Shown here in pieces: positions 59,901-62,900 of a stretch of DNA of 64,000 nt. Made by a program: the position numbers. The stretch comes from Escherichia coli O157:H7 (GTDB lineage Bacteria > Pseudomonadota > Gammaproteobacteria > Enterobacterales > Enterobacteriaceae), in the NCBI RefSeq assembly GCF_013167455.1, contig NZ_CP038328.1. The stretch is one strand, 5' to 3'. Numbering within the stretch: the stretch's first letter is position 1; the number at the start of each line of letters is the position of its first letter.

Positions 59901-62900
59901 AAAATAATATTTTAGCTAATATTATTTTCGTCGACTTCCAGCAACAAGGTGCAAGAGGGCTGACGAACGCGCCTGATGAAGATCCGGACGATTTAAGCAC
60001 GGGATATTACGGTTCAGCGTACCGGTCACCGGAGAACTGGACGACGGCACTGCGAAGCAGTCATTTCAGCTCAGCAGCCCGTCGGGGGATTATTTCTGAC
60101 AGGTTTGTAGAAGCAATTTTGCAGTTTTGGCGCGAAAGGTGAGCGTTCATTAATTTGATTTATTCGCATCCATCAGCGCTTTTAACTCCTCCGGCGTGCG
60201 GCACTATAACGACTTCCACAACAAGGAGCCATTTTCTTATACCACTTTCAGTGACCATCCGCTTATGCCACCACCCTCTACGCAACTGTTTGCAGAGCAC
60301 CTTCCCACCGAGTGGATACAGCACTTCCTGACGCTTTCTGCTCATGCGACCGTTCGTCGTCTTAACCTGAGCGTGGATGGCGAAGCGGGGATGAACCTGC
60401 TGGCGCCCGCAGCGCTGTCACCCAGGCGCGTCAGCGCGTGGGGGCCGCCCCGGTGGAATGGCTCTTCCGCCAGACCACACAGACATGGGGCGCGGAACGT
60501 TACCTGAAGGATGACTGGCACGGCCTGCAACTTTTTGCCATTGATGGCGCACAGTTCAGGACACCTGATGAACCCGAGCTGCGTGAATATTATGGCTCTG
60601 CCAACACATCCACTGAGCGGCAGAGCGCCTACCCCGTCATGCGTCTGGTGGCGTTAATGAATCTGGGAATCACATTCTACTGAATGCCATGACCGCGCCT
60701 ACCGGCGGAGCGATACGGCGTGAGGCAACAAAAGCGGCGTCAGAGATCAGCTTTAAGTTCGCGTTCCAGTTTATCGTGACAGAAATGATAGTGCTGGGAA
60801 ACACGGCGTCACCGGGGACTATCCCGAAACGACTGGAGCATCTGCGGGGGCTCTGGAAGTGGTGTTCATAACAAAACGCCCCCGACCATCAAGGGCGAGG
60901 GCGGTTAAGATATCAAAAACCCGTTATCCTGTGAAACACAGTGCCGCCCCGCTTAAGTGAACGGCATTGTGTTTCTGAGGGACCTTAATTTTCCCTGATT
61001 CTCTGACGTTCCTTACCATTGATATTTCCTTCATTCCTCACCAGAGAAATAAAAAATCACTATACTCATCAAAATATGAGATTACCTTTATTCAGGTGAT
61101 CACCTTACTATTTTTTACGGAAAATAAATTATGAATAACAAGAAATCACTGACAAACCACCTGTAAAATGTCAATCATTTTAGTTCAATTGCCTTTGTCA
61201 TGATTATCTTTTTATCGTCCTGACGATACTATTAACAATTGCAATTTTTATACCCCTCCTGAACAAATAGAAAAGAACTAATATATTCGTTTATAATTCT
61301 GGTAATCCTGGCATCATACGTTTAAAACTTAAGATATTTATTTTATCATCATCATGGTTCCAGAGACTATTGGTCAGCTGGAAATGCCAGCCTTTTCGTG
61401 CCAGCTATATTTGTCCAGTGTGTCACCCCATCCAAAAATCATCCACATCCTGACGTTACGTTAGATATAGAGAAAACAGGTTGTACTGTGCAATATGCAA
61501 ACCGCATAAGCGAATATAATTTCTAAGTTGATATTGTCTGGCTGTTGGGAGCTAAGCAATATAAATATCGCCAGTTGCCAGAACGGTTATATAGACCAGG
61601 AGCGTTTCGGCTCCTGGCCTGTTTTGGACATATTATCAGTCAGCCACTAATAGCGGACTAGGGACACCAGATGATGAAACAAACAGCCCTTTTACGGCAC
61701 GGGTTGCAGCCACATGCAGTAACGCGCGCTCATTAAATAATGCATCACGCTGTTCAACGGGATCATCGGATGCTAATGCTTTTATTTCCGGCACAACGCC
61801 TTCGTTAATCCCCACCAGGAACACATACTGGAACTCAAGCCCTTTAATACGGTGCATCGTTGCAACCCGCACGCCAGGGCGTGCATCGCTGTCACCGCTA
61901 TCATTGCCTAAATTAAATGTCTCAATTCCGGCGTCATTCAGTGCTGATGCGTAGCGGTCACAAGCATGTTTAGTACGCGCAGTAATGCAGATATCCTGAG
62001 AACGAACCTGATTCGCCAGCAATGCCTGAATTTGCTTGACGAGCGTTGCAGCCTCTTCTTTGAAATCTGCCGCATGCGTAATCATGGGCTTTTCCCCGTG
62101 CAGTAATGACAAATAATCATTACTGGTATCCGCTTCGCCATCGAGGTTATCAACCTTCACACCAGTTAACAGCCCAACAGCAAATTGACGCGTCTCTTCT
62201 GTGGTCCGATAGTTAATCTTCAATTTTTTACTGCGACGACCACGGACGTTAATACCACACTGACCAAGAACGACCTTATTGCGATAAATACGCTGATGCC
62301 CATCCCCGACAATAAACAGATCGTTGGGCGACTCGGGAACCAGGCTGCGAATAAGAGTAAATGCCGGGGCACCGATATCTTGAGCTTCATCGACCACAAT
62401 ACTGCTATAAGGTAGTTGGACCTGCTTTTCTTTAAACAGAACAATAGCCTCATGCATGGCATCGCCCATTTCGCGCAGTTTGGCACGCGCCATTTGTGCT
62501 CTGAATTCTTCAAAGACTGGCCAGATTTTCGCCCGTTGAATACGGGATAACGCTGTACCACGTCCAACCCGGCTGACTTTGAGGTATTCCTCCCGGGTGT
62601 AAACCGCATTTGGCTGGACAACGCGTTGCCACTCTTCAGCATAGAAATTATCAGGTAGCCCCAGTTCGGCAGGTGCCTGCTGCAAGGCATAGTTCCAGCA
62701 TTTGCGTCGCCCTTCATCGCTGTCGTATACCACGCGGAAATCATAACCGTGGCGTTTTAGTTGGTCGCTCATCCAGGCATCAATGTTAACGACGTCAATA
62801 CGCGCCATCTCTTCTCGCGTACACAACCGCTGGAGATTAGCGCGAATATCTGCCGCCAGGTTACGCGTAAAGGTCGTGAAAAGTACTTTCTTACCGGGTT

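Follow-up and report, generated by a model that had tools for sequence, protein, structure and literature searches.

A decaying remnant of an IS4-family insertion sequence at the nanS-side end of the SpLE6 island in Escherichia coli O157:H7

Introduction

Cut-and-paste transposition by a DDE mechanism is established for insertion sequences (IS) of the IS4 family. IS4 itself, known in K-12 through its transposase gene insG, is approximately 1.43 kb long, encodes a protein with the Pfam domains Nterm_IS4 and DDE_Tnp_1 and makes target duplications of 11 bp or slightly more, and in all of these respects it resembles the intact element described below. Within such families, ISfinder regards as isoforms those copies that share at least about 95% protein identity or 90% nucleotide identity.

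An intact relative of the DNA studied here is carried by F-type plasmids of E. coli and Salmonella. Searches of plasmid DNA returned full-length copies spanning ~1390 bp at ~91.5% identity, among them a 1430-bp copy on pCPWW7-IncF (L005 1460-2889; NZ_CP075717.1 44413-45842) with an uninterrupted 445-aa ORF (WP_029488891.1), terminal repeats CAATGCCGATCAGTTAAGG and CAATGCCGTTCACTTAAGCGG and an 11-bp target duplication, TTCAGTTCGGG. The copy on pO103 is identical to it at 1418/1430 positions, is flanked by the target duplication CCCGCTTCGCG and has one internal TAG stop. The intact transposase scores 263 bits against the NCBIfam model transpos_IS4_1 (cut-off 115), matches both Nterm_IS4 and DDE_Tnp_1 in Pfam, and has its catalytic residues at D137 (in AIDG), D214 (in LFDKL) and E316, the last within YHSRWEIEVGFRNLK.

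A second relative is chromosomal. In K-12 derivatives a paralogue of the remnant sits between adhE and tdk under the annotation 'IS4 family transposase, frameshifted', and we take this to be the locus named insZ/ISZ' (formerly ychG). ISZ'/insZ has been listed for MG1655 (PMC3032704). The adhE-tdk copy is a frameshifted, internally deleted pseudogene with ~94.6% nucleotide identity to the intact 1430-bp element.

Here, a 64,000-nucleotide stretch of E. coli O157:H7 DNA (the window) was analysed around positions 60160-60900, where an earlier note made from the sequence alone had placed a degenerate IS4-family transposase fragment. The DNA at 60197-60969 is almost certainly what is left of a 1430-bp IS4-family insertion sequence that no longer functions and is decaying.

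Results

The locus and its annotation

Many E. coli O157:H7 chromosomes match positions 60100-61100 of the window at 100% identity, and 60100-61700 is an exact match to O157:H7 Sakai. In an identical O157:H7 genome the gene order given by PGAP is fimB, nanC, nanM, nanS, a transposase pseudogene, a UvrD-type helicase and a DEAD/DEAH helicase of 2113 aa. The two genes that bracket the pseudogene are:

59162-60142, plus strand: nanS, sialate O-acetylesterase, the last conserved gene left of the remnant (PGAP of the identical O157:H7 genome, L001 4063-5043, and ORF list)
61636-63750, minus strand: UvrD-like helicase gene, 704 aa, the first intact SpLE6 gene right of the remnant (ORF list; PGAP 'ATP-dependent helicase'; PADLOC)

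The fragment therefore lies between nanS and the helicase gene, as the earlier note had it. PADLOC identified the product of 61636-63750 as a GajB-like UvrD helicase (E = 2.4e-36).

The feature is already known, being annotated in public records less completely than here. PGAP treats 60265-60960 as a frameshifted 'transposase domain-containing protein' pseudogene, and in the Sakai RefSeq record a curated repeat_region at 5390823-5391061, equivalent to window 60730-60968, is labelled 'ISCro3 Family: IS4 partial'.

Homology to IS4-family transposases

The region holds a series of short ORFs in different frames: 60196-60507 (frame 1), 60438-60683 (frame 3, containing LFAIDGAQFRTPDEPELREYYG), 60689-60871 (frame 2) and, absent from the earlier list, 60859-60960 (frame 1), which corresponds to the transposase C-terminus. 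When the intact 445-aa transposase was compared with the window by tblastn, four collinear pieces in different frames were recovered (E = 1e-52, 9e-22, 1e-20 and 1e-14). The raw short ORFs gave just a sub-threshold Nterm_IS4 match in Pfam (E = 0.014), being too fragmented for such a search, and a frame-corrected translation was needed. This 235-aa translation scored 43.4 bits against Nterm_IS4 (cut-off 25) and 60.6 bits against transpos_IS4_1 (E = 1.3e-16), the latter falling below the 115-bit full-length cut-off because the translation is a fragment.

Similarity to IS4-family transposases is thus far above chance. The ORF list, tblastn, NCBIfam and Pfam all confirm the claim of three short ORFs in different frames with IS4-like transposase motifs, and the call of a degenerate IS4-family fragment is supported in addition by the PGAP pseudogene, the IS4 label in the Sakai record and the domain scores of the intact relative. 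A search of the region against Rfam gave no family, the lone match being to a snoRNA at chance level (E = 0.85).

Global alignment to the intact element defines the full extent:

60197-60969, plus strand: IS4-family IS remnant, 773 bp (global alignment to the intact IS, L005 1460-2889; tblastn E = 1e-52)

The remnant spans nt 42-1430 of the 1430-bp element, from which internal deletions have removed 618 bp and to which insertion has added 2 bp. The span first suggested, 60160-60900, was right in location but not in extent. Relative to the pCPWW7-IncF copy, 730/771 retained nucleotides are identical (94.7%), and the right inverted repeat is likewise shared. The plasmid copies, however, are full-length: they keep both inverted repeats, have 11-bp duplications and encode a DDE transposase of 445 aa, whereas the window copy keeps 771/1430 nt and one catalytic residue. 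A search of the window and the 47-kb island with the intact transposase gave no second copy of the IS.

Lesions in the remnant

Alignment to the intact element located the following changes and the one surviving catalytic codon:

IS nt 1-41: left 41 nt, including the left inverted repeat, missing (alignment)
Window 60239-60241, plus strand: transposase start codon changed from ATG to ATA (alignment, codon table)
IS nt 91-109, after window 60245: 19-bp frameshifting deletion (alignment)
IS nt 216-302, junction at window 60351/60352, plus strand: 87-bp in-frame deletion, aa 45-73 of the Nterm_IS4 domain (alignment)
Window 60403-60404: 2-bp insertion (alignment)
Window 60543-60545, plus strand: first catalytic Asp codon, D137 in the AIDG motif, the sole DDE residue left (motif positions in the intact transposase and retained-codon map)
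IS nt 619, 650 and 1310: three 1-bp deletions (alignment)
IS nt 663-1150, junction at window 60711/60712, plus strand: 488-bp deletion, aa 194-355, in which D214 and the YHSRWEIEVGFRNLK (Y-R-E-K) block with E316 are gone (alignment)
IS nt 1169-1189: 21-bp deletion (alignment)

Frameshifting indels number six in total. A complete DDE triad with a Y-(2)-R-(3)-E-(6)-K block is absent from the remnant, D214 and E316 having been deleted. With one of three catalytic residues left, the start codon lost and six frameshifts, the remnant cannot make a transposase, and it is the leftover of an IS4-family member, not an active member.

Differences between the window and plasmid copies comprise 20 synonymous and 13 non-synonymous changes, which indicates that much of the 5% divergence predates loss of function and that the decay is not dated by that 5%.

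Age and constraint

Strain E01 has an orthologous remnant at the same locus, ~92% identical to that of O157. The two alleles have in common the left truncation, four deletions of 19, ~87, 488 and 21 bp and the loss of 1 bp at IS nt 619, while private lesions are found in E01 at IS nt 396, 516, 1328-1339 and 1421, and the O157 allele has private ones of its own. Because the large lesions are common to both alleles, the remnant is old and predates the split of these island alleles. It was present, with at least 80% of the query covered, in 443/5426 E. coli genomes.

Identity between E01 and O157 was 92.4% in the IS remnant and 93.5-94.0% in the non-coding flanks, compared with 99.3% in nanC, 96.4% in nanM, 98.0% in nanS and 98.6% in the UvrD-like helicase gene. 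The remnant diverges like its non-coding flanks and faster than the neighbouring genes (96-99%), and so it evolves as unconstrained DNA.

These comparisons also bear on whether one of the short ORFs could be a domesticated, functional remnant of the N-terminal region of the transposase. The obvious candidate is ECs_5266 (60438-60683, 81 aa), which is a hypothetical protein CDS in the Sakai record and is open in the O157 allele. It nevertheless begins at a GTG amid a frameshift-rich region, PGAP assigns the same stretch to part of one pseudogene, the equivalent stretch in E01 is hit by the 1-bp deletions at IS nt 396 and 516, and the region diverges as intergenic DNA does (92% against 96-99% for neighbouring genes). 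Domestication is accordingly very unlikely, and the remnant is without function of its own.

The left junction

The left boundary of the remnant is formed by the end of a neighbouring gene:

60150-60197, minus strand: 3' tail of an HNH endonuclease gene, 15 codons TPEELKALMDANKSN plus stop, forming the left junction (collinearity with strain EC28)

The window is collinear with strain EC28 (L006, with an intact HNH CDS at 5991-6641, minus strand) up to 60197 and then diverges, the switch to IS nt 42 falling at 60197 with an ambiguity of 1 nt. Since the HNH tail is joined directly to IS nt 42, one deletion took both the left end of the IS and HNH codons 1-202. The description of the locus as an old insertion site was sound as to age, given the lesions shared with E01, but its left boundary is a deletion junction and not the original insertion site.

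An intact HNH gene adjoins nanS in 1236/5426 complete E. coli genomes, and other lineages have other breakpoints, with ~30%, 18%, 11% (O157 type) or 5% (K-12 type) of the query retained. The nanS-side junction has been rearranged many times in E. coli.

The right end and the target site

The right end is preserved:

60949-60969, plus strand: right terminal inverted repeat, intact, CCGCTTAAGTGAACGGCATTG; the IS ends at 60969 (comparison with the pO103, pCPWW7 and K-12 copies)
60970-60980, plus strand: right flank TGTTTCTGAGG, presumed surviving half of an 11-bp target duplication (single occurrence in the window; resembles relatives' targets)

All 21 bases of the repeat match in the pO103 and pCPWW7 copies, and over the last 18 (CTTAAGTGAACGGCATTG, which runs to the terminal base) the K-12 copy is identical too. 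Repeat finding in the window gave no credible inverted-repeat pair bracketing the region, which the alignment to the intact copy explains by the deletion of the left end. Only one of two terminal inverted repeats is therefore present, the left one having been replaced by the HNH gene tail, and of the repeats that the earlier note had proposed to look for the right was found and the left was not.

The target-site duplication that was to be sought alongside them was likewise not found: the right-flank 11-mer occurs once in the window, with no second copy at up to 1 mismatch, and no duplication survives because the left end is deleted. The flank resembles the target sites of relatives with intact ends (TTCAGTTCGGG, CCCGCTTCGCG and, for the K-12 copy, CCCTTCTGGG), which fits 60969/60970 being the original insertion junction, as judged from the sites of these three relatives. 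The right flank travels with the remnant (448 genomes), and a search with the flank found no informative genome in which it stands uninterrupted as an 'empty site' with the remnant absent, the exceptions being cut by IS1 or another IS.

An intact right repeat, together with intact copies of the same IS species on E. coli plasmids, might suggest a MITE-like, non-autonomous deletion derivative, still open to mobilisation in trans by an intact copy at another place in the cell. Against this, the left 41 bp with the left inverted repeat are absent and the HNH gene tail stands in their place, there is one copy only in the window and the 47-kb island, the genomes with at least 80% coverage are the same 443 in number as the records, and all copies examined lie at the nanS locus. 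No copies with the same internal deletions but other flanks or target duplications were present in the records examined. Lacking one end, the remnant cannot be mobilised in trans, and we give a MITE-like derivative next to no credence.

Relatives and naming

The window copy and K-12-type copies share 93.7-94.0% nucleotide identity over query positions 87-810, which is more than 90% over their common segments, and the intact element is 94-95% identical to each of them. By nucleotide identity, the window remnant, the K-12 adhE-tdk remnant and the intact F-type plasmid copies are assigned to one IS species. The K-12 remnant differs in its lesions, which include deletions of IS nt 263-279 and 815-1239, and in its locus, and it still has its two inverted repeats and a target duplication of 10-11 bp, whereas the window copy is without its left end. 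Different lesions at different loci indicate that the two copies decayed independently.

Canonical IS4 was considered as the parent and rejected. Its terminal repeats are similar to those of the window element's species. The terminal repeat and the LFAIDG...RTPD motif of the remnant resemble IS4, and the Nterm_IS4 domain is present, but the intact relative, itself 94-95% identical in nucleotide sequence to the window copy, has ~38% protein identity to copies annotated 'IS4-like element IS4 family transposase / insG', far from the identity of an IS4 isoform and indicative of a different IS species within the IS4 family, so that the chance of the remnant being a fragment of IS4 itself is minimal.

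The ISCro3 label in the Sakai record covers the last 239 bp only of the 773-bp remnant. A protein named 'ISCro3 transposase' (P0021; the name comes from one NCBI record) is 78% identical to the intact plasmid transposase, and ISCro3, as judged from this one protein so named, is probably not the same IS but a sister element. It was also the sole ISfinder-style name near the top of the protein homologues. For ISEc13, considered as a candidate name, a literature search returned nothing relevant.

The island

The 'phage-like element SpLE6' feature of the Sakai record ends at window 60145, and the remnant begins 52 bp inside it. The island in O157 is ~44 kb long, with the remnant at its nanS-proximal end and tRNA-Leu with an integrase at the other. 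This length agrees with the published sizes of SpLE5 (10,235 bp) and SpLE6 (34,148 bp) (PMC7430833). Island genes encode very large helicases, a 1644-aa methyltransferase, a member of the STY4851/ECs_5259 family, a type II Zorya system (zorA2, zorB2 and zorE) and a phosphorothioate-dependent restriction endonuclease. The proposed junction between the conserved nan genes and a variable region is borne out by the SpLE6 end at 60145, by the presence of the remnant in 443/5426 genomes and of an intact HNH gene in 1236/5426, and by the other breakpoints seen elsewhere.

In strains where nanS, the HNH gene and the gene for the phosphorothioate-dependent restriction endonuclease follow one another, 666 bp (HNH codons 1-202 and the DNA upstream of them) occupy the place that in O157 is taken by the IS remnant, a defence block and then diverged fragments of the nanC end and nanM. 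The defence block is ~31 kb long, contains the giant helicases, the methyltransferase, the STY4851-family gene and the type II Zorya system, and has a copy of the nan/HNH locus on each side, the two copies differing from one another (93-94% identity).

Discussion

Homology, lesions, boundaries, distribution and annotation were all observed directly, and from them we infer an order of events and an original target site. By the cut-and-paste DDE mechanism, the element would have entered DNA at the end of the tRNA-Leu island (SpLE6) nearest nanS, and its right end, the inverted repeat at 60949-60969, would still mark the insertion junction. Later, the left 41 bp would have been deleted along with most of the neighbouring HNH endonuclease gene, and the interior would have gained the 19-, 87-, 488- and 21-bp deletions, the 2-bp insertion, the three 1-bp deletions and the start-codon loss.

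The remnant is ordinary and matters little, with no predicted activity; it is a historical marker of the boundary where the conserved nanCMS genes give way to the variable island. The gain over existing records is modest and lies in a finer anatomy: the remnant measures 773 bp in full, its lesions are itemised, and its left end is shown to be lost, with the HNH tail joined on in its place. In O157:H7 the remnant serves as a landmark for the nanS-side end of SpLE6 at tRNA-Leu, and it is a second chromosomal fossil of an IS species otherwise known from the K-12 adhE-tdk remnant.

As the locus copies that bracket the ~31-kb defence block are non-identical, they suggest that the block may have come in from another lineage along with the DNA on either side of it, the IS lying at the breakpoint. 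That the IS remnant is the scar of the event that placed the block next to nanS is an unlikely possibility, and one that mostly concerns DNA outside the window. For the helicase genes right of the remnant, PADLOC returned just generic GajB-like and weak DruE-like matches.

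Organisation of the region to the right of nanS

The variable region to the right of nanS, covering window 61636-64000 and its continuation in the O157 strain PA20 record (L009 1580-31409), is a defence-type island. Its UvrD-like helicase gives a GajB-like match in PADLOC (E = 2.4e-36), and the 2113-aa DEAD/DEAH helicase has weak matches only, one DruE-like and one, at the C-terminus, ZorE/HNH-like. Also encoded in the island are a 1644-aa methyltransferase, an STY4851/ECs_5259-family protein, type II Zorya and two further giant helicases. The same pair of helicases lies in an island at tRNA-Phe instead in strain 17MR471. 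Features of the locus are as follows.

Features of the nanS-helicase interval and of related loci
60061-60150, minus: 29-aa ORF (MNAHLSRQNCKIASTNLSEIIPRRAAELK), antisense to the nanS 3' end
60150-60197, minus: 3' tail of an HNH endonuclease gene (last 15 codons and stop), joined to the IS4-family remnant at its truncated left end
60928-60980: 19-nt imperfect inverted repeat, arms CCTGTGAAACACAGTGCCG and CGGCATTGTGTTTCTGAGG, 84% complementary (repeat finding)
61124-61137: junction of a ~650-bp absence in O157 versus E. coli strain E01
L009 31600-31877: diverged nanC-end and nanM fragments inside SpLE6, ~31.5 kb right of nanS and outside the window
L003 3892-4880, L002 2960-4389 and L005 1460-2889: IS relatives with intact ends, compared for target duplications

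Of 5426 E. coli genomes, 1236 have an intact HNH endonuclease gene adjoining nanS; in other lineages the gene is cut at several differing points. The nanC-end and nanM fragments within SpLE6, which share 93-94% identity with window 57971-58006 and 58344-58588, directly adjoin the HNH gene's upstream region and a phosphorothioate-dependent restriction endonuclease; therefore the ~31-kb helicase, methyltransferase and Zorya block has a copy of the nan-HNH locus on either side, and the two copies are not identical. At the nanS end, the K-12 counterpart of the small antisense ORF is annotated as 'protein YthB', and elsewhere as 'hypothetical protein'.

In strain E01 the interval from the IS remnant to the helicase gene includes ~650 bp, holding a uracil-DNA-glycosylase-family gene, that are missing from O157; in O157 the 61124-61137 junction keeps only that gene's ATG and the 10-codon stub after it.

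Target sites of the IS relatives

Target duplications were G+C-rich and similar-looking in all three relatives with intact ends: that after adhE is CCCTTCTGGG, lying within the hairpin-like GGCCCCTTCTGGGGCC, and the other two are CCCGCTTCGCG and TTCAGTTCGGG. Their likeness across three sites hints at a target preference of this IS species. In the O157 remnant, the 19-nt imperfect inverted repeat spans the junction of the IS right end and its flank, and may be due to chance.
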